Origin: Trypanosoma brucei
Lineage: Eukaryota
NCBI GenBank assembly: GCA_000002445.1
Contig: AL929603.2
Location: forward strand, 576,001-640,000
Length of the DNA: 64,000 nucleotides
Direction: 5' to 3'
In this document: in pieces, positions 3,141 to 27,481 of the stretch
Layout: each line of letters opens with the position of its first letter
How positions within the stretch are numbered: the stretch's first letter is position 1
Notes under the pieces: model-generated
Seen by the model: only the letters and a program-made list of their open reading frames with translations
What the model was told of the DNA's origin: nothing
Databases searched by the model: none
Position numbers and translations under genes: made by a program

Positions 3141-3260
3141 GATGTTTGTTTCTCGTCCCCTTTCTCCTTCGTCCTTCTGTCATTTTGTTCTTTTGTGTTT
3201 ATGTTTTGTTGTTTTTTTCTTTAATTTTTTTTTTCTTCCACGTTTGTGTACATCCGCGCG
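3141..3260 (+). promoter_or_regulatory. polypyrimidine tract in the beta-to-alpha intergenic region (candidate trans-splicing and polyadenylation signal)
   Basis: The sequence gtttgtttctcgtcccctttctccttcgtccttctgtcattttgttcttttgtg...ttttttttttcttcc is present in all three units. Confidence 0.3.
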
Positions 3261-3725
3261 CCACTCTATTCAGAGAGCCACGGATAGTAGAGGAGGTGGG
3301 AAGGGTATATGAGGGACACGCGTACCATGATGTGGGATGTATTGGGGTCCCTGTCTGTCCTTACGTGACTATGTATGAACCGTCACGTGTAAGATGAGCT
3401 AGTGAGATCAACAGTACAACTCATCAACACGCCTTCTTCTCGTTAAATGTACACAATCTTGATCCTCCACCTTTATGGGTCCCATTGTTTGCCTCTTCCG
3501 CTGTGTGGAGTGCGCCTACACGCACTTCTCACTTCGTAAGTGGTGGTGGCGTAAGTATTCCCTAATGTTGACTCTATGTTCTCCTCTCCTCACCCCCTCG
3601 CGGTGCTGATTTCTGACAGATCTTCAAACACTAGTTTAAGCAAAGGACTATTCATCCGTTTATATTAGCAACAGTAGGTACTAGCACCACTAACAACAAC
3701 AACAAAGCACTTCTATTTATTTATC

Positions 3726-5081: not shown

Positions 5082-5407
5082 AAAGTGTGACAACGTCGCA
5101 CCATGTGTAGGTTTTCATTTACGTTCTTTCTTTCTTTTGTGAATTTGTTTTCTGTCTCAAATGTTTTTAATTCGCTTGGGACCTATGTTTTTCTTGTTTT
5201 TTTGCTCACCCTTTGTGTAGGAGGCATCCTGTCACGTCTGTGGTTGCGTGTATGCCTTCCTTCCCCTTATTCGCTTCTTCCTGTCGTGTCACACCTCTTT
5301 CTCTCTCTCCCTTTCCGCCTTTTCTTTCAATCTTGTTTTCTCGACCAGCCCTACTAGAGGAGAAAGAATAGTAACCCTTTCATCAAAGAAAATAGTTCAA
5401 ACGAATT

Positions 5408-6736
5408 ATGCGCGAAATCGTCTGCGTTCAGGCTGGCCAATGCGGCAACCAGATCGGCTCAAAGTTCTGGGAGGTGATCAGTGACGAGCACGGTGTGGAC
5501 CCCACAGGTACCTACCAGGGTGACTCTGACCTGCAGCTGGAGCGCATCAATGTGTACTTTGATGAGGCAACGGGAGGTCGCTATGTGCCCCGCTCCGTGC
5601 TGATTGATCTGGAGCCAGGTACAATGGACTCCGTACGTGCTGGCCCCTATGGTCAGATCTTCCGCCCCGACAACTTCATCTTTGGACAGTCTGGCGCCGG
5701 CAACAACTGGGCAAAGGGCCACTACACGGAGGGTGCGGAACTGATCGACTCTGTGCTCGATGTGTGCTGCAAGGAGGCGGAGAGCTGTGACTGCCTCCAG
5801 GGCTTCCAGATCTGCCACTCCCTTGGTGGTGGTACTGGCTCCGGCATGGGTACGCTGCTCATCTCGAAGCTTCGCGAGCAGTACCCTGACCGTATCATGA
5901 TGACTTTCTCCATCATCCCATCCCCCAAGGTGTCCGACACTGTCGTCGAGCCGTACAATACGACTCTCTCCGTGCACCAACTTGTGGAAAACTCCGATGA
6001 GTCGATGTGCATTGACAACGAGGCACTGTACGATATTTGCTTCCGCACCCTGAAACTGACAACACCAACGTTCGGTGACCTGAACCACTTGGTGTCTGCT
6101 GTTGTGTCCGGCGTCACCTGCTGCCTGCGCTTCCCTGGTCAGTTGAACTCTGACCTCCGTAAGTTGGCTGTGAACCTTGTCCCATTCCCGCGTCTGCACT
6201 TCTTCATGATGGGCTTCGCCCCGCTGACCAGCCGCGGCTCGCAGCAGTACCGCGGTCTCTCCGTGCCCGAGCTAACGCAGCAGATGTTCGATGCGAAAAA
6301 CATGATGCAAGCTGCAGATCCTCGTCACGGCCGCTACCTGACAGCGTCTGCACTCTTCCGCGGCCGCATGTCGACGAAGGAGGTTGATGAGCAGATGCTG
6401 AACGTGCAGAACAAGAACTCGTCCTACTTCATTGAGTGGATCCCGAACAACATCAAGTCCTCTGTTTGCGATATCCCACCCAAGGGACTCAAGATGGCTG
6501 TCACCTTCATTGGCAACAACACCTGCATCCAGGAGATGTTCCGCCGTGTGGGAGAGCAGTTCACCCTCATGTTCCGTCGCAAGGCGTTCTTGCACTGGTA
6601 CACTGGCGAGGGTATGGACGAGATGGAATTCACGGAGGCAGAGTCCAACATGAACGATCTCGTGTCTGAGTACCAGCAGTACCAGGATGCCACGATTGAG
6701 GAGGAGGGCGAGTTCGACGAGGAGGAGCAATACTAG
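5408..6736 (+). CDS. TUBB: beta-tubulin (442 aa), copy 2
   Basis: The protein is identical to copy 1. There is one synonymous difference, C versus T at 1804. Confidence 0.97.
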
Positions 6737-7367
6737 ACGCGGACGGGGCATTTCCCGTTCGTCATTAGCAGTAGGTAATGAAGATGTTTGTTTCTCGTCC
6801 CCTTTCTCCTTCGTCCTTCTGTCATTTTGTTCTTTTGTGTTTATGTTTTGTTGTTGTTTTCTTTAATTTTTTTTTTCTTCCACGTTTGTGTACATCCGCG
6901 CGCCACTCTATTCAGAGAGCCACGGATAGTAGAGGAGGTGGGAAGGGTATATGAGGGACACGCGTACCATGATGTGGGATGTATTGGGGTCCCTGTCTGT
7001 CCTTACGTGACTATGTATGAACCGTCACGTGTAAGATGAGCTAGTGAGATCAACAGTACAACTCATCAACACGCCTTCTTCTCGTTAAATGTACACAATC
7101 TTGATCCTCCACCTTTATGGGTCCCATTGTTTGCCTCTTCCGCTGTGTGGAGTGCGCCTACACGCACTTCTCACTTCGTAAGTGGTGGTGGCGTAAGTAT
7201 TGCCTAATGTTGACTCTATGTTCTCCTCTCCTCACCCCCTCGCGGTGCTGATTTCTGACAGATCTTCAAACACTAGTTTAAGCAAAGGACTATTCATCCG
7301 TTTATATTAGCAACAGTAGGTACTAGCACCACTAACAACAACAACAAAGCACTTCTATTTATTTATC

Positions 7368-8723
7368 ATGCGTGAGGCTATCTGCATCCACATTGGTCAG
7401 GCTGGTTGCCAGGTTGGTAACGCCTGCTGGGAATTGTTCTGCCTGGAACACGGCATTCAACCCGATGGTGCGATGCCCTCTGACAAGACGATTGGCGTTG
7501 AGGATGATGCGTTCAACACCTTCTTCTCTGAGACTGGTGCTGGCAAGCACGTTCCCCGCGCGGTGTTCTTGGACCTGGAGCCAACAGTGGTGGATGAAGT
7601 GCGCACTGGCACGTACCGCCAGCTGTTCCACCCCGAGCAGCTGATCTCCGGCAAGGAGGATGCGGCCAACAACTACGCTCGTGGCCACTACACCATTGGT
7701 AAGGAGATCGTCGACCTCTGCCTGGACCGCATCCGCAAGCTCGCTGACAACTGCACTGGTCTTCAGGGCTTCCTCGTGTATCACGCCGTCGGCGGTGGCA
7801 CTGGTTCTGGCCTGGGTGCGCTGCTCTTGGAGCGCCTCTCCGTGGACTATGGCAAGAAGTCCAAGCTCGGCTACACGGTGTATCCATCACCGCAGGTGTC
7901 GACGGCTGTCGTGGAGCCCTACAACTCTGTGCTCTCGACACACTCACTTCTGGAGCACACCGATGTTGCTGCGATGCTTGACAATGAAGCGATTTATGAT
8001 TTGACTCGCCGCAACCTCGATATTGAGCGCCCCACGTACACCAACCTGAACCGCCTCATCGGTCAGGTGGTTTCCTCGCTGACAGCGTCCCTCCGCTTCG
8101 ACGGTGCATTGAACGTGGATCTGACAGAGTTCCAGACAAACCTTGTGCCGTACCCACGTATCCACTTCGTGCTGACAAGCTATGCACCAGTCATCTCCGC
8201 AGAGAAGGCCTACCACGAGCAACTCTCTGTCTCTGAGATCTCGAACGCTGTGTTTGAGCCCGCCTCCATGATGACAAAGTGCGACCCCCGCCACGGCAAG
8301 TACATGGCGTGCTGCCTCATGTACCGTGGTGACGTTGTGCCAAAGGATGTGAATGCTGCCGTCGCGACCATCAAGACGAAGCGCACGATTCAGTTCGTGG
8401 ACTGGTCTCCCACAGGCTTCAAGTGCGGTATCAACTACCAGCCACCCACGGTGGTGCCAGGTGGTGACCTTGCCAAGGTGCAGCGCGCGGTATGCATGAT
8501 CGCCAACTCCACGGCCATCGCAGAGGTGTTCGCCCGTATTGACCACAAATTCGATCTCATGTACAGCAAGCGCGCCTTCGTGCACTGGTACGTCGGTGAG
8601 GGTATGGAAGAGGGTGAGTTCTCCGAGGCCCGTGAAGACCTTGCAGCACTTGAGAAGGACTACGAAGAGGTTGGTGCCGAGTCCGCGGATATGGACGGTG
8701 AGGAGGATGTGGAGGAGTACTAG
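7368..8723 (+). CDS. TUBA: alpha-tubulin (451 aa), copy 3
   Basis: The protein is identical to the other copies. It has two synonymous nucleotide differences, at 7991 and 8534. Confidence 0.97.
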
Positions 8724-9049
8724 AAAGTGTGACAACGTCGCACCATGTGTAGGTTTTCATTTACGTTCTTTCTTTCTTTTGTGAATTTGTTTTCTGTCTC
8801 AAATGTTTTTAATTCGCTTGGGACCTATGTTTTTCTTGTTTTTTTGCTCACCCTTTGTGTAGGAGGCACCCTGTCACGTCTGTGGTTGCGTGTATGCCTT
8901 CCTTCCCCTTATTCGCTTCTTCCTGTCGTGTCACACCTCTTTCTCTCTCTCCCTTTCCGCCTTTTCTTTCAATCTTGTTTTCTCGACCAGCCCTACTAGA
9001 GGAGAAAGAATAGTAACCCTTTCATCAAAGAAAATAGTTCAAACGAATT

Positions 9050-9950
9050 ATGCGCGAAATCGTCTGCGTTCAGGCTGGCCAATGCGGCAACCAGATCGGC
9101 TCAAAGTTCTGGGAGGTGATCAGTGACGAGCACGGTGTGGACCCCACAGGTACCTACCAGGGTGACTCTGACCTGCAGCTGGAGCGCATCAATGTGTACT
9201 TTGATGAGGCAACGGGAGGTCGCTATGTGCCCCGCTCCGTGCTGATTGATCTGGAGCCAGGTACAATGGACTCCGTACGTGCTGGCCCCTATGGTCAGAT
9301 CTTCCGCCCCGACAACTTCATCTTTGGACAGTCTGGCGCCGGCAACAACTGGGCAAAGGGCCACTACACGGAGGGTGCGGAACTGATCGACTCTGTGCTC
9401 GATGTGTGCTGCAAGGAGGCGGAGAGCTGTGACTGCCTCCAGGGCTTCCAGATCTGCCACTCCCTTGGTGGTGGTACTGGCTCCGGCATGGGTACGCTGC
9501 TCATCTCGAAGCTTCGCGAGCAGTACCCTGACCGTATCATGATGACTTTCTCCATCATCCCATCCCCCAAGGTGTCCGACACTGTCGTCGAGCCGTACAA
9601 TACGACTCTCTCCGTGCACCAACTTGTGGAAAACTCCGATGAGTCGATGTGCATTGACAACGAGGCACTGTACGATATTTGCTTCCGCACCCTGAAACTG
9701 ACAACACCAACGTTCGGTGACCTGAACCACTTGGTGTCTGCTGTTGTGTCCGGCGTCACCTGCTGCCTGCGCTTCCCTGGTCAGTTGAACTCTGACCTCC
9801 GTAAGTTGGCTGTGAACCTTGTCCCATTCCCGCGTCTGCACTTCTTCATGATGGGCTTCGCCCCGCTGACCAGCCGCGGCTCGCAGCAGTACCGCGGTCT
9901 CTCCGTGCCCGAGCTAACGCAGCAGATGTTCGATGCGAAAAACATGATGC
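9050..9950 (+). pseudogene. TUBB: beta-tubulin truncated after codon 300 by a retroposon insertion; the frame continues 49 codons into the ingi 5' end
   Basis: It matches the intact beta copies up to ...FDAKNMM at nt 9950. Intact copies continue QAADPRHG, but here the sequence switches to the ingi 5' end CCCTGGTGATGCTGGCCACC. Confidence 0.93.
9938..9950. repeat. 5' target-site duplication of ingi A (AAAAACATGATGC)
   Basis: The same 13-mer recurs at 15169-15181 directly after the poly(A) end of the element. It is derived from the beta-tubulin sequence. Confidence 0.8.
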
Positions 9951-10070
9951 CCCTGGTGATGCTGGCCACCTCATCGTGGTGCCAGGGTCCAGTACCTCGC
10001 CTATGCGTGGGAAGCCAAGAGCCGGCAACCGCCATCTTTGTAAGGAAGTGCCTGCGGGTGCGTCATCGTT

Positions 10071-10934
10071 TTGCCATGGGACAAGCAGAGTCAGGCTGAG
10101 ACAAAGTGTTATCAATGTCTGTCCTTAGGTACGTGCAGACGTGCCATCAGTAGTATTATTCGCGCCCAGAAACTGATGAATGGTGATGTGGAAAGTAAAT
10201 TAGACCCTGTATTCCGTGGCACCCAGTGGAACTGCGCTGCGCTCACACAGGGCAAGCGGTTAGCTCTTCATAGGATGCTCATTGAGGATAGGGTAAGCTT
10301 CTGCTTACTGTGCGAAACGAATTTTTCCTCTCTGGAAGAACAGATTCTCCATCCTCTACTTTTGCAACACGACGGAGCAGAAAGGGATGCAAACGGTGGT
10401 GGAGTATCTATTCTGATACAAAAAGTCCTCCGGGTGGAAGTCGGTGAGAAGAAAGTGGGACAGCTAGAACATGTAAGCGCCACTATCCACGTATCAGAGG
10501 AAGACAAACTAACGCTCACGTCAGCCTATTTTCCAAGAGGACGAAGCGCTGTGAACTTGGGAAAACTTGTCGCATTGAAGAGAGATGTGCAATACGTCAT
10601 AGGCGCCGACGTGAATTTACATTTGTGTCTATGGGATAGAGAGGTCCCTCCTGATGCAGGAGGTGAAGCAATGACTACTTGGTGTGTTGATACAGGTTAT
10701 ATTGTAGCAAATACAGCTGACCGCACCAGATATGACTATGCACGAAACCTCGGATCGTCCCCTGACGTAACGCTGAACCGGGAATGTCAAATTATCAATT
10801 GGACGGCTACAGAGACACCGGACAGTGATCACTACGTCATCTTATTTCAGTCATCGTCGGAAACGATGAGATCCCGATTGCCCTTGCTTGTCTGGACCGA
10901 GCGCTATTCTCTTGAAAGAAAGCCGACTGGGTGA
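10071..10934 (+). pseudogene. ingi A AP-endonuclease-like ORF segment
   Basis: This is the N-terminal endonuclease region, homologous to the ingi B ORF at 15220-15968. It is broken by stops and frameshifts. Confidence 0.6.
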
Positions 10935-11625
10935 AATTCAATGCCTACACCAAGCAAGAAAGCAAGAAGATCGGAAACTCGGGGAAAATACACAAAAACG
11001 CCCCCATTTTAGGTAATATTATCCGGGACGCGACAGTGAAAGCTGTCCCCCGCGGCTCCTTTTTCCAAAAGCCTTTGTGAACGAAGGAGTTAACAGAGAG
11101 AGATGAGAAGATACGATGCGTCCAACATCTTCGAGAGAGGCCATCTCTTGTCTCCCAGCGAAAAAAACTGCTAATGGAAGTCTCCACCAAACGATGGCAT
11201 GAGACTTGCAACAAGTTTGCAGTTTCTGAGAGTAACAGTTGGCATATCGTAAAGAATGTTTTCTCACAAAAAACCCTAGTCACACCAGCAGTGAGGGCAG
11301 ACAACAGAATCCTGGCGCAGAAGCAGCACGCACAGAGTCTCATAGATATATACCCTGAATAGTCGAAGCGGCACCCGGATGTTGCGCAAGCTCCTTCGAT
11401 TTCCCTCCCAAAACAGATGCCATACAGGCGTATCTCCATGGGAGAATTGAACACAACCCTAAGGTATATACCAAATGGTTCTGCTCCTGGAAACAATATG
11501 CAGTGGATTGAGAGGCTCTCAAGCACCTCAACAAATATGGAAGGCGTTTACTACCACGATTATTCAATCGCAGTTTATACGCTGGTGAGGATCCGCAACC
11601 GTGGAAAAAAGGTGTCATCATTCCA

Positions 11626-12545
11626 TTGTTGAAAGTGGGAAAGCCATCCATTGACCTAGCATCCTTCAGGCCTGTTACCTTAACAAGTACGGTCTTAAAG
11701 GTCATGGAAAAGATTGTCTGCGCAAGGATCCGTAACACTGTCGAATCGAAATTGAAAGTGCAGCAATCAGGATTCAGCACGGGTAACTCTACACTAGACC
11801 AGCTCTTACACCTAATGGCAGCTCTATGTAGACCTCACCACGATGACAGGAAAGGGGCTGTATTTGCTTATTACCCGGAGGCATTCGACACGGTAGATCA
11901 TGCAACAGCGGTTCGTGCCATGCAGGAAATGGGAATACCAACTTACACTGTGAAATGGACCGCTACCTTACTACAGGGAAGAAAAAAACAAGTAAGGGTA
12001 AAGAAGGTGTTTTCGGGGAACAGGGAGTTCACACGAGGGGTTCCACAAGGTACAGTCCTAGGTCCCCTCTTATCATAGTGGTGAACTCTCTCAGTAAACG
12101 CCTCAACCAAATTCCTGGTCTAGGACATGGCTTCTTCGCAGACGATCTAACTCTCTCATGTCGTCACTCTGATAGAAACATAGTCCAGGAAACGCTCCAA
12201 GCAGGGCTAAACGCAGTAGCAGCATGGAGCCGAGAGACTTATATGGGCATTAATGTGGATAAGACCAAATACACACTATTTGGCGCCAAGAACAGAAACT
12301 CACTACTTCTGTTGGTGAACGGGAAACCTATCGATGAAGATAGAAATCCCAAGATACTTGGCATCACATTACAGTCATATAGTGGTTTCTCCACCCATGT
12401 CGAGGGGGTTAAAAAGGCAGTGGATATGCGACTACTGCAACTTGCTGCAATCTCATCAACTTCTTGGGGACCACGAACCAACACGATCAGGACGTTCTAC
12501 ATTGCCCTGACTCGTGCAAAGATCTTGTACGGCGTGGCGATTTAG
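11626..12545 (+). pseudogene. ingi A reverse-transcriptase segments, two overlapping frames
   Basis: RT-like sequence: FRPVTLTSTVLKVMEKIVCARI...; ...FADDLTLSC... (YxDD-like); LVNGKPIDEDRNPKILGI. The reading frame shifts near 11955-12078. Confidence 0.7.
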
Positions 12546-13028
12546 TATCATAATGCCAACTACTTCAATCAGGAAGAGCTAGAGTGTTCCCAAAACAGAG
12601 CGTGCAGAATTCTCTCCGGAACGGTGAGAGGTTGAAACAGTACAGACGCGCGCCTAGAGGCCAACTTAACGTCCCTTAGAGAAGCCGCGACGATACGGGG
12701 TCTGAAGTACCTGATACGCTGCCAGCCACGAGATAGATACCTAAAAGAGAGTGCGGAGTTAGTATATCACCCAAGTTATCCTGTCCGAAAGTTACTGAAT
12801 GATGTAAAGCGTGAATACCCACAACTTCAGGTAGAATCCGCACACACCACAGAGTGGTGTCCATATTTCTGGATACAGCGAACAGATGTCTGTTTCACTA
12901 CGCCATTCCCCCGAATGTGAACAGAGACTCGGAGGAAGAACTCAAACGTGAGACATCCGAAAGATGGATAAAGCGCCGTTATTAGAAGAAAAGGGCAATA
13001 ACCCTGTCGCTCTATCACACTACGAAGT

Positions 13029-13310
13029 GTGGACAGACGGATCTGTAACACTGGAGGAAAATCAGGAGCGGCAGCTCTCATCGTCAAGAATGGCAAACTC
13101 CTGCACAAAGTGCTCGAAGGAACGGGACGACTTGCATGCAGCTATAGAGCTGAATGTGTAGTCCTAATAATTGGCCTGAAACAACTGTCCAAAGAGATCG
13201 ATAAAGCAGAAAAACAAAACTTCCGATTATTGATATTTACGGACTCATGGTCAATGGTAGCAGCTCTGCACGCGGGCCCGCTTACAGTTACAGACACAGT
13301 ACTGCGCTAA
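13029..13310 (+). pseudogene. ingi A RNase H-like segment
   Basis: The sequence TDGSVT...AAALIVKNGKLL...RAECVVLIIGLKQL...FTDSWSMVAAL matches the RNase H fold pattern. Confidence 0.65.
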
Positions 13311-13728
13311 ATATGGACACTACTCATCCAACTCCAAAGTAAAGGAGGACGGATTCGTATTCAGTTCATATTTGGTCACTGTGGAATAGCGGGTAATGAG
13401 CAAGCTGACGCAGCAGAGCAACCACAAATGCGAACTGCATGGATACCGGAGGTGGTTGCAGCAGCGAAAAGGCTGCTGCGCACTACAAGGGAAAAGCCAC
13501 AAACACATAGGGCCACACTTACTGGACACTGGAAGAACACAAACCTCAAGACCTCGCTGTCCAGAAAAGAATAAACCCTACTGACTCAACTCCGCACGGG
13601 TGCAGCACCTACGTACGGTTGGGTGAACAGGAAATTGAACCCTAATATCCCCAACACATGCAGATGGTGTTGCAATGTGGCAAAAAGCCAGACAGTGGAG
13701 CTCGTGAGTGTGAGACCAACATCCACAC

Positions 13729-14085
13729 GTGCAAGCGATCCAACAGTTTGCCCAATTTGTGGGCTGCGATGCTCGAACCGGCAAAATGGCGCTATACACA
13801 TGCAACGAACCCATGGAGTCCAATACGAGCAGGGCAAACGGCGACTCAAATTCCCGCGAGGAGATGGAGGAGGATTCCAATTTGGCCCTCCCACCTCCCG
13901 AACCGCCGCCAAACACAGAAACACCGCAAACCGCTGCGGATACTATTATGTATCCCTGCTTGATCTGCGAGAGGACCTTCAAATCGAAGACTTGGCAAAC
14001 AAGGCACAGAGAGACCGCACACCCGGGTGTAGCACCACCGCGCGGAACAACAGAAAACCCAGAGGGAAGTGAACAAACAACATAA
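13729..14085 (+). pseudogene. ingi A C-terminal C2H2 zinc-finger segment
   Basis: YPCLICERTFKSKTWQTRHRETAHPG is a C2H2 finger. Confidence 0.7.
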
Positions 14086-14568
14086 TCGGAGAACACTCTT
14101 CAGTGTGCCCTGTGTTCTTTTGTACACAAGTCCAAGGGTGGATTAACAAACCACCGAAGAGTCCAGCACCCAGATCAAAAGGTCACGATAGCAACCAGGA
14201 AGAGCGGAAGGGATTCGGCGAATCGACGGGAAGTAGAGGAGGAGGAACCATCAGCTACCTCGCTCCATTGTACATGCTGCGATTTCATAGAGAAATCAAA
14301 GAGTGGGTTAGCTGCGCACTGTAGGTATAGGCACCTCCAAACAGTCTAGTCTATCACTACAGTTTCAAAAAAGAGACCAAGGACCCCCACTCCAGAGAAT
14401 AGATCGCAGAAAGTACGGACGGAAAGAGTCGAAGGAAGATATCAGTGTGATCACTGCGAGAAGACATACGCCACACCATCCACTCTAATACGCCACTACA
14501 GGGCGAAAAATAGTGGAAGCGTATGTCAGCTCTCTAGCACCGAGGCAGCTCCGGCAGGACGACGATAC

Positions 14569-15000
14569 GTGAAGGTTACAGTGCCGACGCATGAGTGTAC
14601 CGAGTGCGGCACCAAGTGCTACTCAAAAGCAGGACTAACGCGTCATCAACAAACTGCACATGGTTTGAAGCTGGAAACCCCTCTCCCCCAGATGCATGAA
14701 TGCGAAGAGTCACCTAGGCACCTACTCGTGTACCCAGGACTCGCTACACTGCGTCAACGATTCTTCAAGGATGACACACCTCTCGAAAAGTTGCTGTACA
14801 GTGAAGAGTTAACAAAATTCCTACTGGAACTGGAAAAACTCTCACAAAAGGTACCGCCAGAAAGTAAAGGCCGAACGCCGGATATCGAATCAGCTGACCC
14901 TCGTAGTGATTGCCCTCCGTCTAGGAGATATCAAACTTCTGTCTCCCCCCCCCCTGTCGGATCGCGTGGGAAGCGGAAACGCTCACCATTTCCTCGATGA
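14569..15000 (+). pseudogene. ingi A second C2H2 zinc-finger segment
   Basis: HECTECGTKCYSKAGLTRHQQTAHG is a C2H2 finger. It lies in a different frame from the preceding segment. Confidence 0.65.
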
Positions 15001-15168
15001 GCCCCTGTGTACACAGTTAGTCTCCCCCGTCCATATTAAGACGGAGCCTGGGTCTCGTCAGCCCAGAAACTCTCCCCCCTTCACCACAAAGCAGGCACCA
15101 ACGTTCGAATAGGACTGCTGGTGGTACGCTGCCAAATATCTCTTTGAGATAATTGCGCGTTATATTAA

Positions 15169-15181
15169 AAAAACATGATGC
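15169..15181. repeat. 3' target-site duplication of ingi A (AAAAACATGATGC), merged with the element poly(A)
   Basis: Identical to 9938-9950. Confidence 0.8.
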
Positions 15182-16185
15182 CCCTGCACCCGCAGCAGAT
15201 TCCCTCAAAGAGCTGACGGTTGCAGGGGCTTGGCTTCCCCCGCATAGGCGAGGTACTGGACCCTGGTACCACGATGAGGTGGCCGGCTGAGCCAGGGTGC
15301 GGAAGCCAAGGGCCTGCGACACCCGAAAGGGCTAACAAGCTTAGGTTTCTACTTGTTGGGAAAACGGATAGTGGAAACCACCCTAGTGGTTGGTTGGTCG
15401 CTCGCACTGTGCGCTACAGTACTGCGGATGCAGAGATTGGACCTTGCAAGGGTTTAATTTCGCACGATTGCAAGCTTCTGCTGTTACTGTGTGGATACTT
15501 TGAGCGCAATCCTGGACCCCTCCGGTTTGTGCAGCAGAACGTTAACGGTGTCTCAGCAGTAAAGCTATCAAGCCTACTTGCTCTAGATGCAGACGTCTAT
15601 CTTCTTCCGGAGGTGAAGAAGTTGCGTGAGGCGTCTCGCATCTGTAAGGTCCCGCCATACACAGTTTACTGTAGCCCCCCGAACGCTCGGGGTGGAAGAG
15701 TTGCCATCTTGGTGCACCAACGAAGCAGCATCCAGACCAGGAGTGTGACATGGAAAGCACTCCCAAACGACACTGGCATCAAAGCCGTAACTGTGAAATT
15801 GTGATAGGTAATACTCATCTGGGTATAGTGAATGTTTACATCCCCCCACCACCGAGCATCACTGGATCCTTCGCTACCCTTCTGCAGACCTTGGAAAATA
15901 ACTGCTCTATTATTGAGGGAAACTTCAATGTTTTCCACCCACTATGGTGGAGCGAGGTCGGTCAATAAAACAGGTCGGACAAGTTCTTTTACCTGTCCAC
16001 CTATGCATATTCGAACTGCAAAACATCCTTGACGCGGTAACACGAAGCTAAGGCAATCAGAAAAGCGCCCTGGACCTCACCCCGTCTCGTTTGGATGATG
16101 CAATGCAACGGACCACGCTATTGTAGCTAGACAGCGATCACAAAGGGATCACATTTATGCTCGAAAAAGCATGCGAAATGATTAT
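15182..16185 (+). mobile_element. second ingi-type element, a 5' fragment of about 1 kb with an inverted 5' terminus; its 3' limit is approximate
   Basis: Positions 15185-15297 are the reverse complement of an ingi 5' end (Pr77). From 15298 the sequence continues in forward ingi orientation, starting near element nt 55. The ORF at 15220-15968 encodes a 2A-like ...ERNPGP motif followed by the AP-endonuclease N-terminus (LRFVQQNVNGVS...DADVYLLPEV). Confidence 0.75.
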
Positions 16186-16495
16186 TCTCATCCCCTTTAT
16201 CCCTAGCCTCTTCCACTTTCCAACTTCCCTCCTCTGCCTCCTCTCACCCTTTTGTTTTTGTATTTCCCTTTTATTTTACATTTTCACCCCACCATCAGCG
16301 TCCTTTCACTGGCTTTGTGGCACCGCTTCCTTCTTAGTAGCGGTTCTTTTGCACAACCGCATGCACACATACATCCCTTTGAATGTCATACCTCCCTCCT
16401 CTCTCTTTCTCTTTTTTTTTTCTGTTACATCTCATACTAGAAAGCTAAAAAGCTACTTTACCACAACTCTCAAACCAAGCAACAAACTAAAAGAC

Positions 16496-16897
16496 ATGTC
16501 GAGGACCAAGGAAACCGCCAGGACGAAGAAGACCATCACCTCCAAGAAGAGCAAGAAGGCCTCAAAGGGTTCTGATGCCGCATCTGGCGTAAAGACCGCC
16601 CAACGCCGCTGGAGGCCCGGCACCGTGGCACTCCGTGAAATCCGCCAGTTCCAACGCTCCACCGACCTGCTGCTACAAAAGGCACCATTTCAACGCCTGG
16701 TCCGTGAGGTGTCTGGTGCCCAAAAGGAGGGTCTGCGCTTCCAGAGTAGCGCTATTCTCGCCGCACAGGAAGCGACTGAGTCGTACATTGTGTCGCTGCT
16801 TGCCGATACCAACCGCGCATGCATTCACAGTGGGCGTGTGACAATCCAACCAAAGGACATTCACCTTGCCCTCTGCCTACGCGGTGAACGTGCATAA
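16496..16897 (+). CDS. H3: histone H3 (133 aa)
   Basis: Sequence [25 protein letters not shown]...RLVREV...[17 protein letters not shown]. The H3 core motifs are present with a trypanosomatid-type divergent N-terminus. The true start is the internal Met of the longer ORF-track entry. Confidence 0.95.
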
Positions 16898-18078
16898 GAA
16901 GGTACAGAAATGCGTAATTGAGTGAGTGAGTATGAATATGAGTAGGTGTGTGTGTATGTATGTATGTATGCGTGAGGGTCAGGGTTGAGACAAATATTCA
17001 GATTAGAGAAAGAAAGAAAGAGAGAGAGAGCACTGCAAAGCATGCATGCATGTATATGTATATATGTGTGTATGTTTATGTGCATGACCTTCTTTCTCTT
17101 TCCCCTTCTCCTCTCTGTTGCTCTCCTCTACGTTCCACTTGCATGCATAACACATACTTCCTTCTTGTAACTGCTCCCTTTCTCTCATTACACTGTGTAG
17201 CCTTTACTTTCTTTCCCCTCTTCCCCTCACTACAAAGACACTGTGTGTCCGACCCTCCTAACTTGCTCCTGCTCACAGCGGTTTCCAGTCGCATTAGCCA
17301 TCGTCACACGGTACCACACAATGATGCCTTGTGATTTGTTTTGCCTTTTGCTACTATTCATCGGAGGCCGTGCGTGGCGTGCGCGGATTGTTGTGCAGGT
17401 GTACCTGCCGGCGTGTCCCCGCTGCGCGGTTGGGGAAGAGACAAGTTTAGGGGGCTGTTGTGACACAGTTAGATTTTCCACGTCACCTCCAGCGGTGCGG
17501 ATGCCTCCACTTCAGGTGTGGTTCCCCATTCCCCCGTATATCTTTCTTTCTTTCTTTTCGTCTGCTCATTCCACTCTGGGTGCAATATCCGGGAGTGTGG
17601 AATAAGAGTTGAGATTGGGGTTAAGATGAGGGTAAAGGGGAGTGGAGGGGCGACGTGGGAGAGACGGATGGCCAGATGGAAAGGGAAAGAAAGGTGTGAA
17701 AGTGTGGAGGTAACGAGATATTGGGTGAGGGTGACTGATAGAGGACAGCATCTGTGAATGTGTGGTTACTCTTCTCCCCTTTATCCCTAGCCTCTTCCAC
17801 TTTCCAACTTCCCTCCTCTGCCTCCTCTCACCCTTTTGTTTTTGTATTTCCCTTTTATTTTACATTTTCACCCCACCATCAGCATCCTTTCACTGGCTTT
17901 GTACCACCGCTTCCTTCTTAGTAGCGGTTCTTTTGCACAACCGCATGCACACATACATCCCTTTGAATTTCATACCTCCCTCCTCTCTCTTTCTCTTTTT
18001 TTTTCTGTTACATCTCATACTAGAAAGCTAAAAAGCTACTTTACCACAACTCTCAAACCAAGCAACAAACTAAAAGAC

Positions 18079-18480
18079 ATGTCGAGGACCAAGGAAACCG
18101 CCAGGACGAAGAAGACCATCACCTCCAAGAAGAGCAAGAAGGCCTCAAAGGGTTCTGATGCCGCATCTGGCGTAAAGACCGCCCAACGCCGCTGGAGGCC
18201 CGGCACCGTGGCACTCCGTGAAATCCGCCAGTTCCAACGCTCCACCGACCTGCTGCTACAAAAGGCACCATTTCAACGCCTGGTCCGTGAGGTGTCTGGT
18301 GCCCAAAAGGAGGGTCTGCGCTTCCAGAGTAGCGCTATTCTCGCCGCACAGGAAGCGACTGAGTCGTACATTGTGTCGCTGCTTGCCGATACCAACCGCG
18401 CATGCATTCACAGTGGGCGTGTGACAATCCAACCAAAGGACATTCACCTTGCCCTCTGCCTACGCGGTGAACGTGCATAA
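18079..18480 (+). CDS. H3: histone H3 (133 aa), copy 2
   Basis: The protein is identical to copy 1. Confidence 0.95.
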
Positions 18481-19662
18481 GAAGGTACAGAAATGCGTAA
18501 TTGAGTGAGTGAGTATGAATATGAGTAGGTGTGTGTGTATGTATGTATGTATGCGTGAGGGTCAGGGTTGAGACAAATATTCAGATTAGAGAAAGAAAGA
18601 AAGAGAGAGAGAGCACTGCAAAGCATGCATGCATGTATATGTATATATGTGTGTATGTTTATGTGCATGACCTTCTTTCTCTTTCCCCTTCTCCTCTCTG
18701 TTGCTCTCCTCTACGTTCCACTTGCATGCATAGCACATACTTCCTTCTTGTAACTGCTCCCTTTCTCTCATTACACTGTGTAGCCTTTACTTTCTTTCCC
18801 CTCTTCCCCTCACTACAAAGACACTGTGTGTCCGACCCTCCTAACTTGCTCCTACTCACAGCGGTTTCCAGTCGCATTAGCCATCGTCACACGGTACCAC
18901 ACAATGATGCCTTGTGATTTGTTTTGCCTTTTGCTACTATTCATCGGAGGCCGTGCGTGGCGTGCGCGGATTGTTGTGCAGGTGTACCTGCCGGCGTGTC
19001 CCCGCTGCGCGGTTGGGGAAGAGACAAGTTTAGGGGGCTGTTGTGACACAGTTAGATTTTCCACGTCACCTCCAGCGGTGCGGATGCCTCCACTTCAGGT
19101 GTGGTTCCCCATTCCCCCGTATATCTTTCTTTCTTTCTTTTCGTCTGCTCATTCCACTCTGGGTGCAATATCCGGGAGTGTGGAATAAGAGTTGAGATTG
19201 GGGTTAAGATGAGGGTAAAGGGGAGTGGAGGGGCGACGTGGGAGAGACGGATGGCCAGATGGAAAGGGAAAGAAAGGTGTGAAAGTGTGGAGGTAACGAG
19301 ATATTGGGTGAGGGTGACTGATAGAGGACAGCATCTGTGAATGTGTGGTTACTCTTCTCCCCTTTATCCCTAGCCTCTTCCACTTTCCAACTTCCCTCCT
19401 CTGCCTCCTCTCACCCTTTTGTTTTTGTATTTCCCTTTTATTTTACATTTTCACCCCACCATCAGCATCCTTTCACTGGCTTTGTACCACCGCTTCCTTC
19501 TTAGTAGCGGTTCTTTTGCACAACCGCATGCACACATACATCCCTTTGAATTTCATACCTCCCTCCTCTCTCTTTCTCTTTTTTTTTTCTGTTACATCTC
19601 ATACTAGAAAGCTAAAAAGCTACTTTACCACAACTCTCAAACCAAGCAACAAACTAAAAGAC

Positions 19663-20064
19663 ATGTCGAGGACCAAGGAAACCGCCAGGACGAAGAAGAC
19701 CATCACCTCCAAGAAGAGCAAGAAGGCCTCAAAGGGTTCTGATGCCGCATCTGGCGTAAAGACCGCCCAACGCCGCTGGAGGCCCGGCACCGTGGCACTC
19801 CGTGAAATCCGCCAGTTCCAACGCTCCACCGACCTGCTGCTACAAAAGGCACCATTTCAACGCCTGGTCCGTGAGGTGTCTGGTGCCCAAAAGGAGGGTC
19901 TGCGCTTCCAGAGTAGCGCTATTCTCGCCGCACAGGAAGCGACTGAGTCGTACATTGTGTCGCTGCTTGCCGATACCAACCGCGCATGCATTCACAGTGG
20001 GCGTGTGACAATCCAACCAAAGGACATTCACCTTGCCCTCTGCCTACGCGGTGAACGTGCATAA
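19663..20064 (+). CDS. H3: histone H3 (133 aa), copy 3
   Basis: The protein is identical to copy 1. Confidence 0.95.
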
Positions 20065-21254
20065 GAAGGTACAGAAATGCGTAATTGAGTGAGTGAGTAT
20101 GAATATGAGTAGGTGTGTGTGTATGTATGTATGTATGTATGTATGCGTGAGGGTCAGGGTTGAGACAAATATTCAGATTAGAGAAAGAAAGAAAGAGAGA
20201 GAGAGCACTGCAAAGCATGCATGCATGCATATATATATATGTGTGTATGTTTATGTGCATGACCTTCTTTCTCTTTCCCCTTCTCCTCTCTGTTGCTCTC
20301 CTCTACGTTCCACTTGCATGCATAACACATACTTCCTTCTTGTAACTGCTCCCTTTCTCTCATTACACTGTGTAGCCTTTACTTTCTTTCCCCTCTTCCC
20401 CTCACTACAAAGACACTGTGTGTCCGACCCTCCTAACTTGCTCCTACTCACAGCGGTTTCCAGTCGCATTAGCCATCGTCACACGGTACCACACAATGAT
20501 GCCTTGTGATTTGTTTTGCCTTTTGCTACTGTTCATCGGAGGCCGTGCGTGGCGTGCGCGGATTGTTGTGCAGGTGTACCTGCCGGCGTGTCCCCGCTGC
20601 GCGGTTGGGGAAGAGACAAGTTTAGGGGGCTGTTGTGACACAGTTAGATTTTCCACGTCACCTCCAGCGGTGCGGATGCCTCCACTTCAGGTGTGGTTCC
20701 CCATTCCCCCGTATATCTTTCTTTCTTTCTTTTCGTCTGCTCATTCCACTCTGGGTGCAATATCCGGGAGTGTGGAATAAGAGTTGAGATTGGGGTTAAG
20801 ATGAGGGTAAAGGGGAGTGGAGGGGCGACGTGGGAGAGACGGATGGCCAGATGGAAAGGGAAAGAAAGGTGTGAAAGTGTGGAGGTAACGAGATATTGGG
20901 TGAGGGTGACTGATAGAGGACAGCATCTGTGAATGTGTGGTTACTCTTCTCCCCTTTATCCCTAGCCTCTTCCACTTTCCAACTTCCCTCCTCTGCCTCC
21001 TCTCACCCTTTTGTTTTTGTATTTCCCTTTTATTTTACATTTTCACCCCACCATCAGCATCCTTTCACTGGCTTTGTACCACCGCTTCCTTCTTAGTAGC
21101 GGTTCTTTTGCACAACCGCATGCACACATACATCCCTTTGAATGTCATACCTCCCTCCTCTCTCTTTCTCTTTTTTTTTTCTGTTACATCTCATACTAGA
21201 AAGCTAAAAAGCTACTTTACCACAACTCTCAAACCAAGCAACAAACTAAAAGAC

Positions 21255-21656
21255 ATGTCGAGGACCAAGGAAACCGCCAGGACGAAGAAGACCATCACCT
21301 CCAAGAAAAGCAAGAAGGCCTCAAAGGGTTCTGATGCCGCATCTGGCGTAAAGACCGCCCAACGCCGCTGGAGGCCCGGCACCGTGGCACTCCGTGAAAT
21401 CCGCCAGTTCCAACGCTCCACCGACCTGCTGCTACAAAAGGCACCATTTCAACGCCTGGTCCGTGAGGTGTCTGGTGCCCAAAAGGAGGGTCTGCGCTTC
21501 CAGAGTAGCGCTATTCTCGCCGCACAGGAAGCGACTGAGTCGTACATTGTGTCGCTGCTTGCCGATACCAACCGCGCATGCATTCACAGTGGGCGTGTGA
21601 CAATCCAACCAAAGGACATTCACCTTGCCCTCTGCCTACGCGGTGAACGTGCATAA
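21255..21656 (+). CDS. H3: histone H3 (133 aa), copy 4
   Basis: The protein is identical to copy 1, with one synonymous AAG-to-AAA change. Confidence 0.95.
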
Positions 21657-22840
21657 GAAGGTACAGAAATGCGTAATTGAGTGAGTGAGTATGAATATGA
21701 GTAGGTGTGTGTGTATGTATGTATGTATGTATGCGTGAGGGTCAGGGTTGAGACAAATATTCAGATTAGAGAAAGAAAGAAAGAAAGAGAGAGCACTGCA
21801 AAGCATGCATGCATGCATATATATATGTGTGTATGTTTATGTGCATGACCTTCTTTCTCTTTCCCCTTCTCCTCTCTGTTGCTCTCCTCTACGTTCCACT
21901 TGCATGCATAACACATACTTCCTTCTTGTAACTGCTCCCTTTCTCTCATTACACTGTGTAGCCTTTACTTTCTTTCCCCTCTTCCCCTCACTACAAAGAC
22001 ACTGTGTGTCCGACCCTCCTAACTTGCTCCTGCTCACAGCGGTTTCCAGTCGCATTAGCCATCGTCACACGGTACCACACAATGATGCCTTGTGATTTGT
22101 TTTGCCTTTTGCTACTATTCATCGGAGGCCGTGCGTGGCGTGCGCGGATTGTTGTGCAGGTGTACCTGCCGGCGTGTCCCCGCTGCGCGGTTGGGGAAGA
22201 GACAAGTTTAGGGGGCTGTTGTGACACAGTTAGATTTTCCACGTCACCTCCAGCGGTGCGGATGCCTCCACTTCAGGTGTGGTTCCCCATTCCCCCGTAT
22301 ATCTTTCTTTCTTTCTTTTCGTCTGCTCATTCCACTCTGGGTGCAATATCCGGGAGTGTGGAATAAGAGTTGAGATTGGGGTTAAGATGAGGGTAAAGGG
22401 GAGTGGAGGGGCGACGTGGGAGAGACGGATGGCCAGATGGAAAGGGAAAGAAAGGTGTGAAAGTGTGGAGGTAACGAGATATTGGGTGAGGGTGACTGAT
22501 AGAGGACAGCATCTGTGAATGTGTGGTTACTCTTCTCCCCTTTATCCCTAGCCTCTTCCACTTTCCAACTTCCCTCCTCTGCCTCCTCTCACCCTTTTGT
22601 TTTTGTATTTCCCTTTTATTTTACATTTTCACCCCACCATCAGCATCCTTTCGCTGGCTTTGTACCACCGCTTCCTTCTTAGTAGCGGTTCTTTTGCACA
22701 ACCGCATGCACACATACATCCCTTTGAATGTCATACCTCCCTCCTCTCTCTTTCTCTTTTTTTTTTCTGTTACATCTCATACTAGAAAGCTAAAAAGCTA
22801 CTTTACCACAACTCTCAAACCAAGCAACAAACTAAAAGAC

Positions 22841-23242
22841 ATGTCGAGGACCAAGGAAACCGCCAGGACGAAGAAGACCATCACCTCCAAGAAGAGCAAG
22901 AAGGCCTCAAAGGGTTCTGATGCCGCATCTGGCGTAAAGACCGCCCAACGCCGCTGGAGGCCCGGCACCGTGGCACTCCGTGAAATCCGCCAGTTCCAAC
23001 GCTCCACCGACCTGCTGCTACAAAAGGCACCATTTCAACGCCTGGTCCGTGAGGTGTCTGGTGCCCAAAAGGAGGGTCTGCGCTTCCAGAGTAGCGCTAT
23101 TCTCGCCGCACAGGAAGCGACTGAGTCGTACATTGTGTCGCTGCTTGCCGATACCAACCGCGCATGCATTCACAGTGGGCGTGTGACAATCCAACCAAAG
23201 GACATTCACCTTGCCCTCTGCCTACGCGGTGAACGTGCATAA
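22841..23242 (+). CDS. H3: histone H3 (133 aa), copy 5
   Basis: The protein is identical to copy 1. Confidence 0.95.
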
Positions 23243-24426
23243 GAAGGTACAGAAATGCGTAATTGAGTGAGTGAGTATGAATATGAGTAGGTGTGTGTGT
23301 ATGTATGTATGTATGCGTGAGGGTCAGGGTTGAGACAAATATTCAGATTAGAGAAAGAAAGAAAGAAAGAGAGAGCACTGCAAAGCATGCATGCATGTAT
23401 ATGTATATATATGTGTGTATGTTTATGTGCATGACCTTCTTTCTCTTTCCCCTTCTCCTCTCTGTTGCTCTCCTCTACGTTCCACTTGCATGCATAACAC
23501 ATACTTCCTTCTTGTAACTGCTCCCTTTCTCTCATTACACTGTGTAGCCTTTACTTTCTTTCCCCTCTTCCCCTCACTACAAAGACACTGTGTGTCCGAC
23601 CCTCCTAACTTGCTCCTACTCACAGCGGTTTCCAGTCGCATTAGCCATCGTCACACGGTACCACACAATGATGCCTTGTGATTTGTTTTGCCTTTTGCTA
23701 CTATTCATCGGAGGCCGTGCGTGGCGTGCGCGGATTGTTGTGCAGGTGTACCTGCCGGCGTGTCCCCGCTGCGCGGTTGGGGAAGAGACAAGTTTAGGGG
23801 GCTGTTGTGACACAGTTAGATTTTCCACGTCACCTCCAGCGGTGCGGATGCCTCCACTTCAGGTGTGGTTCCCCATTCCCCCGTATATCTTTCTTTCTTT
23901 CTTTTCGTCTGCTCATTCCACTCTGGGTGCAATATCCGGGAGTGTGGAATAAGAGTTGAGATTGGGGTTAAGATGAGGGTAAAGGGGAGTGGAGGGGCGA
24001 CGTGGGAGAGACGGATGGCCAGATGGAAAGGGAAAGAAAGGTGTGAAAGTGTGGAGGTAACGAGATATTGGGTGAGGGTGACTGATAGAGGACAGCATCT
24101 GTGAATGTGTGGTTACTCTTCTCCCCTTTATCCCTAGCCTCTTCCACTTTCCAACTTCCCTCCTCTGCCTCCTCTCACCCTTTTGTTTTTGTATTTCCCT
24201 TTTATTTTACATTTTCACCCCACCATCAGCATCCTTTCACTGGCTTTGTACCACCGCTTCCTTCTTAGTAGCGGTTCTTTTGCACAACCGCATGCACACA
24301 TACATCCCTTTGAATGTCATACCTCCCTCCTCTCTCTTTCTCTTTTTTTTTTCTGTTACATCTCATACTAGAAAGCTAAAAAGCTACTTTACCACAACTC
24401 TCAAACCAAGCAACAAACTAAAAGAC

Positions 24427-24828
24427 ATGTCGAGGACCAAGGAAACCGCCAGGACGAAGAAGACCATCACCTCCAAGAAGAGCAAGAAGGCCTCAAAGGG
24501 TTCTGATGCCGCATCTGGCGTAAAGACCGCCCAACGCCGCTGGAGGCCCGGCACCGTGGCACTCCGTGAAATCCGCCAGTTCCAACGCTCCACCGACCTG
24601 CTGCTACAAAAGGCACCATTTCAACGCCTGGTCCGTGAGGTGTCTGGTGCCCAAAAGGAGGGTCTGCGCTTCCAGAGTAGCGCTATTCTCGCCGCACAGG
24701 AAGCGACTGAGTCGTACATTGTGTCGCTGCTTGCCGATACCAACCGCGCATGCATTCACAGTGGGCGTGTGACAATCCAACCAAAGGACATTCACCTTGC
24801 CCTCTGCCTACGCGGTGAACGTGCATAA
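24427..24828 (+). CDS. H3: histone H3 (133 aa), copy 6
   Basis: The protein is identical to copy 1. Confidence 0.95.
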
Positions 24829-26010
24829 GAAGGTACAGAAATGCGTAATTGAGTGAGTGAGTATGAATATGAGTAGGTGTGTGTGTGTGTATGTATGTAT
24901 GCGTGAGGGTCAGGGTTGAGACAAATATTCAGATTAGAGAAAGAAAGAAAGAGAGAGAGAGCACTGCAAAGCATGCATGCATGTATATGTATATATGTGT
25001 GTATGTTTATGTGCATGACCTTCTTTCTCTTTCCCCTTCTCCTCTCTGTTGCTCTCCTCTACGTTCCACTTGCATGCATAGCACATACTTCCTTCTTGTA
25101 ACTGCTCCCTTTCTCTCATTACACTGTGTAGCCTTTACTTTCTTTCCCCTCTTCCCCTCACTACAAAGACACTGTGTGTCCGACCCTCCTAACTTGCTCC
25201 TGCTCACAGCGGTTTCCAGTCGCATTAGCCATCGTCACACGGTACCACACAATGATGCCTTGTGATTTGTTTTGCCTTTTGCTACTATTCATCGGAGGCC
25301 GTGCGTGGCGTGCGCGGATTGTTGTGCAGGTGTACCTGCCGGCGTGTCCCCGCTGCGCGGTTGGGGAAGAGACAAGTTTAGGGGGCTGTTGTGACACAGT
25401 TAGATTTTCCACGTCACCTCCAGCGGTGCGGATGCCTCCACTTCAGGTGTGGTTCCCCATTCCCCCGTATATCTTTCTTTCTTTCTTTTCGTCTGCTCAT
25501 TCCACTCTGGGTGCAATATCCGGGAGTGTGGAATAAGAGTTGAGATTGGGGTTAAGATGAGGGTAAAGGGGAGTGGAGGGGCGACGTGGGAGAGACGGAT
25601 GGCCAGATGGAAAGGGAAAGAAAGGTGTGAAAGTGTGGAGGTAACGAGATATTGGGTGAGGGTGACTGATAGAGGACAGCATCTGTGAATGTGTGGTTAC
25701 TCTTCTCCCCTTTATCCCTAGCCTCTTCCACTTTCCAACTTCCCTCCTCTGCCTCCTCTCACCCTTTTGTTTTTGTATTTCCCTTTTATTTTACATTTTC
25801 ACCCCACCATCAGCATCCTTTCACTGGCTTTGTACCACCGCTTCCTTCTTAGTAGCGGTTCTTTTGCACAACCGCATGCACACATACATCCCTTTGAATG
25901 TCATACCTCCCTCCTCTCTCTTTCTCTTTTTTTTTTCTGTTACATCTCATACTAGAAAGCTAAAAAGCTACTTTACCACAACTCTCAAACCAAGCAACAA
26001 ACTAAAAGAC

Positions 26011-26412
26011 ATGTCGAGGACCAAGGAAACCGCCAGGACGAAGAAGACCATCACCTCCAAGAAGAGCAAGAAGGCCTCAAAGGGTTCTGATGCCGCATCT
26101 GGCGTAAAGACCGCCCAACGCCGCTGGAGGCCCGGCACCGTGGCACTCCGTGAAATCCGCCAGTTCCAACGCTCCACCGACCTGCTGCTACAAAAGGCAC
26201 CATTTCAACGCCTGGTCCGTGAGGTGTCTGGTGCCCAAAAGGAGGGTCTGCGCTTCCAGAGTAGCGCTATTCTCGCCGCACAGGAAGCGACTGAGTCGTA
26301 CATTGTGTCGCTGCTTGCCGATACCAACCGCGCATGCATTCACAGTGGGCGTGTGACAATCCAACCAAAGGACATTCACCTTGCCCTCTGCCTACGCGGT
26401 GAACGTGCATAA
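26011..26412 (+). CDS. H3: histone H3 (133 aa), copy 7
   Basis: The protein is identical to copy 1. Confidence 0.95.
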
Positions 26413-27481
26413 GAAGGTACAGAAATGCGTAATTGAGTGAGTGAGTATGAATATGAGTAGGTGTGTGTGTATGTATGTATGTATGCGTGAGGGTCAGGGT
26501 TGAGACAAATATTCAGATTAGAGAAAGAAAGAAAGAAAGAGAGAGCACTGCAAAGCATGCATGCATGTATATGTATATATATGTGTATGTTTATGTGCAT
26601 GACCTTCTTTCTCTTTCCCCTTCTCCTCTCTGTTGCTCTCCTCTACGTTCCACTTGCATGCATAACACATACTTCCTTCTTGTAACTGCTCCCTTTCTCT
26701 CATTACACTGTGTAGCCTTTACTTTCTTTCCCCTCTTCCCCTCACTACAAAGACACTGTGTGTCCGACCCTCCTAACTTGCTCCTACTCACAGCGGTTTC
26801 CAGTCGCATTAGCCATCGTCACACGGTACCACACAATGATGCCTTGTGATTTGTTTTGCCTTTTGCTACTGTTCATCGGAGGCCGTGCGTGGCGTGCGCG
26901 GATTGTTGTGCAGGTGTACCTGCCGGCGTGTCCCCGCTGCGCGGTTGGGGAAGAGACAAGTTTAGGGGGCTGTTGTGACACAGTTAGATTTTCCACGTCA
27001 CCTCCAGCGGTGCGGATGCCTCCACTTCAGGTGTGGTTCCCCATTCCCCCGTATATCTTTCTTTCTTTCTTTTCGTCTGCTCATTCCACTCTGGGTGCAA
27101 TATCCGGGAGTGTGGAATAAGAGTTGAGATTGGGGTTAAGATGAGGGTAAAGGGGAGTGGAGGGGCGACGTGGGAGAGACGGATGGCCAGATGGAAAGGG
27201 AAAGAAAGGTGTGAAAGTGTGGAGGTAACGAGATATTGGGTGAGGGTGACTGATAGAGGACAGCATCTGTGAATGTGTGGTTACTCTTCTCCCCTTTATC
27301 CCTAGCCTCTTCCACTTTCCAACTTCCCTCCTCTGCCTCCTCTCACCCTTTTGTTTTTGTATTTCCCTTTTAATTTACACCTTTTTTTTATTTACACTTT
27401 TTGTATGATGTTTTTTTTTTTTTGCTGTTATCCCTTTTCTTTTTTTTTTGTATTGAAGTATTGATTTTTAGTGTCGTGAGT

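Follow-up and report, generated by a model that had tools for sequence, protein, structure and literature searches.

At the end of the alpha/beta-tubulin array in a 64,000-nt stretch of the Trypanosoma brucei genome (assembly GCA_000002445.1, contig AL929603.2, positions 576,001 to 640,000 of the forward strand; hereafter the window, numbered from its first letter), the last beta-tubulin gene is broken off by a retroposon of the ingi family, ingi A. The approximately 1 kb between the 3′ target site duplication (TSD) of ingi A and the histone H3 array consists of an inverted retroposon 5′ fragment, M, followed by a second retroposon relic, element B. On balance we think it probable that this arrangement is a composite scar left by at least two endonuclease-initiated events at a single beta-tubulin target, with the insertion of ingi A as a later one of these. 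The junction between tubulin and M falls on the same nucleotide as the end of the ingi A TSD.

Ingi A (9951..15169, plus strand) is a full-length but degenerate element of 5.2 kb that starts with CCCTGG, and with its many stops and frameshifts it is a pseudogene. The 5′ copy of its 12-bp TSD, AAAACATGATGC, was identified by direct reading at 9939..9950 and the 3′ copy lies at 15170..15181 (both on the plus strand), the identity reaching 13 nt when the preceding A is counted; the last 7 nt of the 3′ copy, ATGATGC, occupy 15175-15181. The element ends in ...GCGCGTTATATT plus a few A, with an A tail of about 3 nt between …TTATATT and the A-rich TSD. It is 84-86% identical to an ingi copy of T. 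equiperdum (L011), and it shares with M a hallmark variant, CCTCGCCTATGCG, at nt ~45-57, where three elements of the T. brucei group (L009:10133, L010:9993, and L011:1239) carry CCCCGTATCATCG or CCCCGTCTCATCT. Ingi A may be a member of an older ingi subfamily.

In intact beta-tubulin copies ATGATGC is followed by AAGCTGCAG, whereas past the 3′ TSD of ingi A it is followed by CCCTGCACCC, which bears out the claim of the initial annotation that the sequence does not return to beta-tubulin at this point. In its place stands M (15182..15297, minus strand), an inverted fragment of 116 bases that descends from nt ~116 to nt 1 of an ingi/RIME-type 5′ region. That 15185-15297 is a reverse-complemented ingi 5′ end, as had been proposed, was upheld by BLAST, which aligned 15186-15297 to the reverse complement of 9951-10061 with 85.2% identity over 115 columns (E=5e-27). 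A 26-nt probe from the 79-nt hallmark occurs in the window only at 9982-10007 (plus strand) and 15241-15266 (minus strand), with 0 occurrences expected, and the hallmark is complete in M (15219-15297, minus strand), which terminates at exactly element nt 1. Similarity between M and ingi A extends beyond the hallmark, to nt ~112 by BLAST (85-86%) and to nt 122 by local alignment, and that between M and the ingi copy L011 reaches nt 115 by local alignment; against the hallmark-bearing elements L009 and L010 the match stops at nt 68-77. Since homology to ingi A and L011 runs past the clade-wide hallmark, M is assigned by its alignments to the ingi/RIME type, its 116 nt being insufficient to distinguish RIME from ingi.

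In target-primed reverse transcription (TPRT), whatever lies 3′ of the 3′ TSD represents the original target sequence. By this logic the target of ingi A would already have read tubulin...AAAACATGATGC-CCCTGCACCC..., and the tubulin/M junction would be older than ingi A. The suggestion that two elements shared one insertion site is supported to the extent that a second retroposon-derived block begins at the exact nucleotide where the 3′ TSD of ingi A ends. The junction also carries a microhomology, as GCATCAT, found at nt ~117-124 of ingi-type 5′ regions, is complementary to ATGATGC, the last 7 nt of the TSD; the aligned site is exact in L009 and L011, GCATCAG in L010, and GTCATCGTTTT in ingi A. 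Past the clear homology of M the context reads ...CGGCATCAT... in other ingi-clade 5′ regions, ...CGGCATCAG... in L010, and ...GCGTCATCGTTTTG... in ingi A, and the reverse complement of the window at the tubulin/M junction reads ...GGGTGCAGGGGCATCATGTTTTT, so that the ATGATGC of the TSD is simultaneously what M would be expected to continue with. When the inverted strand is aligned locally to ingi A, the alignment continues through the whole TSD to 15170, and the microhomology amounts to 7 nt exact, or as much as 12 nt if a 2-nt gap to the ingi A version is allowed. Judged from these alignments, tubulin/M is a microhomology junction placed exactly at the top-strand nick that defines the TSD of ingi A. 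A chance coincidence on the same nucleotide would be expected about once in hundreds to a thousand, from which we infer that the older junction was probably made at an ingi-type endonuclease cut.

The initial annotation also took element B to open with its own 5′ end in inverted duplicate. Its statement that forward ingi sequence starts at 15298 stands for the hallmark core, which does restart there (GGAAGCCAAGGGCC at 15301-15314, in the window only at three hallmark positions; GGAAGCCAAGNNCC has three occurrences in the 64 kb, each at a hallmark position), the forward hallmark remnant of B (15298..15320, plus strand) covering nt ~53-79. It does not stand for the remainder, however, as B is ingi-like for about 23 nt only, cannot be aligned to ingi A or M past hallmark nt ~79, and gave no match to ingi A by tblastx. 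The inverted repeat formed by M and B has arms of 20 nt (15219-15238 and 15301-15320) with 62 nt between them, not of some 60-113 nt, and these arms are 85% complementary, differing by 3 mismatches and a 2-nt indel; M and B overlap only over hallmark nt ~53-79 and are unrelated from nt 80. Because the hallmark is common to every ingi-clade family, the likeness of M and B is accounted for by the hallmark itself, and the structure is best read as two different families head to head, not as an inverted duplication of the 5′ end of one element.

The body of B (15321..16170, plus strand) is a degenerate L1Tc/DIRE-like retroposon relic with both ends lost. Three-frame translation yielded a 2A-like ERNPGP (15502-15519) followed by an apurinic/apyrimidinic (AP) endonuclease domain with stops and frameshifts, in which the blocks QQNVNG ... 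GGRVAILV ... NVYIPP ... GNFN ... HPLW ... LDLT ... SDH can be recognized and which matches PF14529 (E=1.3e-7). This domain is only ~22% identical to the endonuclease of ingi A (E=0.1), and an exhaustive HMMER search placed its closest relatives in Leptomonas seymouri (46%), T. theileri, Angomonas deanei, T. melophagium, and the L1Tc/L1Tco elements of T. cruzi (32%). The inferred distance from nt 1 to NPGP is ~263 nt in B and ~270-290 nt in the T. theileri and A. deanei elements, a fit which argues that B is collinear with them from nt ~53 on. Some 0.87 kb of B survives, its first ~52 nt being gone and its 3′ side being broken off past the SDH motif of the endonuclease, and no reverse transcriptase (RT) domain, poly(A), or TSD was found in B before it meets the H3 array at ~16170-16179. 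As B is truncated, the missing full hallmark, RT domain, and poly(A) are not evidence against membership of the DIRE/L1Tc family, and by its translated domain B is assigned not to ingi but to another, older lineage within the ingi/L1Tc clade; following Bringaud et al. (PMC3820030), it is termed a DIRE. With DIREs it has in common a partial hallmark, a degenerate AP-endonuclease ORF (open reading frame), the 2A-like NPGP, and relatives across trypanosomatids, and it differs from a complete DIRE in that only ~0.87 kb is left, with no RT domain and no ends. A word-indexed protein search for paralogues of B returned the orthologous 176-aa ORF only.

With two families at hand, a single second ingi at the same site that inverted its own 5′ end by twin priming or template switching becomes very improbable. 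Such a model fits the topology, which passes from the TSD through an inverted segment to nt 1 and then to a forward restart at nt ~53 inside the inverted range, and a microhomology is present at the TSD junction, but it would have M and B alignable beyond hallmark nt ~53-79 and its 20-nt arms, it sits badly with an endonuclease whose closest relatives lie outside Tbingi, and neither poly(A) nor a second TSD follows B. Own-5′-end duplication and twin priming on a single RNA, both raised in the initial annotation, were rejected for these reasons, the fragments stemming from different families with no closing poly(A) or TSD. A tandem duplication of ingi A, likewise raised there, was discarded, since outside the hallmark ingi A and B have no sequence in common. 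We give equally little credence to a snap-back, in which the cDNA would fold on the hallmark P1 stem (nt 1-7/nt 31-37), prime itself, and produce a hairpin-type inverted duplication that was later joined to a B without hallmark. For this it can be said that 15291-15297 (GCCAGGG) reads the same as hallmark nt 31-37 in forward direction and as hallmark nt 1-7 in reverse complement, and that the local DNA fold at M/B is moderately better than that of shuffles (z=-3.1). Yet the forward sequence restarts at nt ~53 instead of nt 38, the arms differ by the mismatches and indel given above, and arm homology stops at nt ~79, the exact point of divergence of all ingi-clade families, which is what a forward hallmark belonging to B itself would lead one to expect.

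The composite-scar reading that we favour would run as follows. In a first step, an ingi-type endonuclease would cut the target and leave a 12-nt top-strand 3′ overhang ...AAAACATGATGC-3′, whose last 7 nt (possibly up to 12) would anneal to GCAUCAU or GCATCAT at nt ~117-124 of ingi/RIME-type sequence, with the outcome that tubulin is joined to ingi/RIME-type sequence reversed, down to nt 1. Two variants of this step, which we hold to be equally plausible for the inverted fragment, differ in the template. In variant (a) the template would be RNA, and reverse transcription primed from the top strand would proceed to the RNA 5′ end in a manner like twin or dual priming, after which the cDNA end would be joined to B; this variant would explain why M ends exactly at nt 1, and it needs the cDNA to be joined to B. 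In variant (b) the template would be DNA; here microhomology-mediated end joining (MMEJ) would take place with a reverse-oriented ingi/RIME copy that already stood head-to-head with B, at the cost of the 3′ part of beta-tubulin, the DNA in between, the greater part of the ingi/RIME copy, and the first ~52 nt of B. One deletion would here explain the loss of both the tubulin 3′ part and the first 52 nt of B, and an earlier normal insertion of M beside or into the hallmark of B is required. In both variants B would be a separate, older L1Tc/DIRE-like element and not part of the inverted element. In a presumed second step, the recognition sequence upstream of the nick would still be intact, and ingi A would enter the same nicks by ordinary TPRT, duplicating 12 bp so that the 3′ TSD copy comes to adjoin M. 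The 3′ part of B would have been lost later, at the border of the H3 array.

The 5′ inversions of LINE-1 (L1) were reportedly ascribed to twin priming by Ostertag and Kazazian in 2001. In its classical form, twin priming yields two fragments of the same RNA that are bounded by TSDs and carry a poly(A) tail; for L1, priming of the top strand at a site inside the RNA, and of the two nicks by two different RNAs, has also been described or proposed (PMC2837659). M has the geometry expected of top-strand priming, as it adjoins a TSD copy, begins at a site complementary to the nicked top-strand 3′ end, and runs 5′-ward from nt ~116 to nt 1 next to the 7-nt microhomology, and the arrangement resembles L1 dual priming in that the latter allows two different RNAs. 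Unlike L1 twin priming, the forward partner B is of a different family, so that the two do not stem from one RNA, neither poly(A) nor a TSD closes the composite, and M reaches exactly nt 1; moreover, a DNA template (MMEJ) explains the junction equally well. Papers linking twin priming with ingi were looked for, and none was found in the literature collection searched. It is possible, though we would put it forward only tentatively, that M arose as cDNA, primed by the cut top strand within the 5′ region of RNA from an ingi/RIME element and then attached to an element of another kind. Such an event would have truncated the tubulin array, and among the ingi-clade retroposons of trypanosomatids it would be the first of the twin- or dual-priming type to be documented.

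Pairs of ingi-clade elements in tandem, with nothing but a 12-bp TSD between them, are known and have been attributed to repeated use of one target (Bringaud et al., PMC3820030). The present locus is like these pairs in having a full ingi A, one 12-bp TSD copy, and then ingi-clade material, and unlike them in that the downstream block opens with an inverted fragment from nt ~116 to nt 1, that there is no third TSD copy, and that the target fits published signatures weakly. End joining in T. brucei proceeds by MMEJ with microhomologies of 5-20 bp, non-homologous end joining (NHEJ) not having been found (Glover, Jun & Horn, PMC3045614). A microhomology of 7 nt (possibly 12 nt, imperfect) where the 3′ part of the gene was removed is in line with this route; the experimental deletions were small (mean 284 bp, PMC3045614), whereas kilobases would have to have been lost here, and the break lies at the nick of a retroposon endonuclease. 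Taken as a whole, the locus behaves as a composite of two known phenomena, namely tandem insertion at a shared site and a junction formed by microhomology where an endonuclease cut.

A history confined to DNA, in which a reverse-oriented ingi/RIME copy and B inserted independently, head-to-head, on the downstream side of the array and MMEJ between the ATGATGC of tubulin and the GCATCAT of ingi mended a spontaneous break, would dispense with any role of the endonuclease at this step, and the TSD of ingi A would then coincide by chance, or ingi A would have come first and a deletion ended at its TSD. It draws on the established end-joining route and its 5-20 bp microhomologies (PMC3045614), on the 7-nt microhomology at the junction, on the clustering of retroposon relics, and on the poor fit of the tubulin target to endonuclease signatures. 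However, the end of a deletion and a second-strand nick would have to fall on one nucleotide, which within a gene of ~1.3 kb we estimate at about 1 in hundreds to 1 in a thousand, and for this reason we regard such a history as unlikely. The head-to-head recombination product that the initial annotation had named as an alternative remains viable.

Several points weigh against the composite-scar reading. The comparison of ingi-clade 5′ ends comprises only four sequences, and a longer similarity between tubulin and the antisense ingi 5′ region (17/25 by eye) is at chance level, with a score of 18 against a shuffle mean of 16.1 and 108 of 500 shuffles equalling it. Only the 7-nt microhomology therefore counts, and its significance was judged post hoc. 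The target matches the ingi4 signature weakly (4-5 of 10 positions, within the top 9-25% of window positions) and the ingi6 signature at 4 of 6 positions (top 5% of window positions), so that a site preference stays putative, and the fit to endonuclease preference claimed in the initial annotation is weak. The order of events is inferred, comparison having yielded neither an allele with an empty site nor an outgroup version of the locus. The junction between nt 1 of M and nt ~53 of B has no clear microhomology, the GCCAGGG overlap predicting a restart at nt 38. Past B there is no poly(A), TSD, or tubulin remainder, and an insertion of B at this site is not demonstrable.

The possibility of a misassembly, or of a tandem duplication of one insertion, deserves mention because the surroundings are rich in repeats (the tubulin and H3 arrays, ingi) and prone to such errors. 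The 9.0-16.5 kb arrangement has collinear counterparts in T. b. gambiense DAL972 (FN554964.1, 98.4% identity) and in GCA_003543875.1 (CM010672.1, 97.5%), the latter being T. brucei equiperdum by its protein names, and over 15120-15460, where the junctions are the same, these two further T. brucei-group assemblies show 99.7% and 100% identity to the window. Since three assemblies of different subspecies contain the same structure, misassembly is excluded, and with ingi A and B being without common sequence beyond the hallmark, the probability left to artefact and duplication together is negligible. By the same comparison the M/B structure is older than the split of the three T. brucei-group lineages. 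A search for outgroup synteny via histone H3 led in T. vivax to the middle of a long H3 array, with no tubulin border there.

As for the wider layout, self-BLAST delimited the alpha/beta-tubulin array at 1-9950 with a unit of 3643 bp, and its terminal, truncated beta-tubulin gene (9050..9950, plus strand) was delimited by self-BLAST and comparison to intact copies. The gene ends in ...FDAKNMM (...GCGAAAAACATGATGC), being broken off after ...TTCGATGCGAAAAACATGATGC where intact copies go on with AAGCTGCAG. Pfam Tubulin was matched in the orthologous 349-aa ORF of the truncated gene, and for the truncated tubulin-ingi fusion ORF no exact protein was found on record. Affolter, Rindisbacher, and Braun are said to have reported in Gene in 1989 that the T. 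brucei tubulin cluster closes with a truncated beta-tubulin gene interrupted by retrotransposon-like (TRS/ingi) sequence. We take this to be the present locus, where a beta gene broken by ingi closes the array. On its 3′ side element B is bounded by the histone H3 tandem array (16179..27379, plus strand), the unit of which is ~1.59 kb. At the B/H3 border (16160-16180), CGAAAAAGCATG resembles the tubulin target CGAAAAACATG, with 11 of 11 target bases matching and one G inserted; it is most likely, going by its translation, B coding sequence (LEKAC past SDH) together with the start of homology to the H3 unit, rather than a degenerate TSD. Elsewhere in the window, a perfect 286-bp inverted repeat (61377-61662 and 63561-63846) surrounds a 1.36-kb internal ingi fragment in reverse orientation (62003-63362), which by self-BLAST is 98% identical to ingi A 12813-14171.

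Relatives of B offer observations of their own. The 2A-like ERNPGP just ahead of its endonuclease domain is a feature that B shares with L1Tc-type elements: T. theileri and T. cruzi both have GDIEQNPGP as this motif, A. deanei has GDIERNPGP, and L. seymouri has DVESNPGP. In T. theileri (NBCO01000298.1; L013:~560-920) and A. deanei (ATMG01005355.1; L012:~430-760) such relatives are fused in frame to alpha-tubulin at an identical codon, the tubulin codon being followed directly by the retroposon hallmark (CCCTGG... or ACTCTGG...). These fusions, in two distant genera, suggest that the L1Tc/ingi lineage of B has recurrently used a tubulin site, or that several trypanosomatids have tubulin arrays capped by retroposons. 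In T. melophagium the relative (L016, with its element start at ~9865) lies outside tubulin, which weakens the idea of a strictly tubulin-specific lineage.

The Pr77 promoter motifs are, by direct reading, intact in the hallmark of M, with CCACC at nt 16-20 and the downstream promoter element (DPE) CGTG at nt 25-28; the forward hallmark remnant of B is without the CCACC and CGTG positions. The DPE at +25 to +28 of the 77-79-nt hallmark is essential for the Pr77 promoter (PMC4748587). As the hallmark of M retains these motifs and points into ingi A and the tubulin array, the inverted Pr77 is a candidate antisense promoter and could be a source of antisense transcription. An HDV (hepatitis delta virus)-like ribozyme was sought in the hallmarks via Rfam, and no family was obtained at E<=1.

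For annotation, the locus teaches that the common 79-nt hallmark can make two unrelated relics resemble a palindromic duplication. Under the composite-scar reading, it shows how the tubulin array would have come to end truncated, namely by repeated endonuclease activity at one nucleotide and microhomology-guided repair. If the RNA-templated variant is true, twin or dual priming, so far a matter of mammalian L1, would reach to a very distant LINE clade, ingi, with a ribozyme-defined 5′ end and in a host organism without NHEJ.

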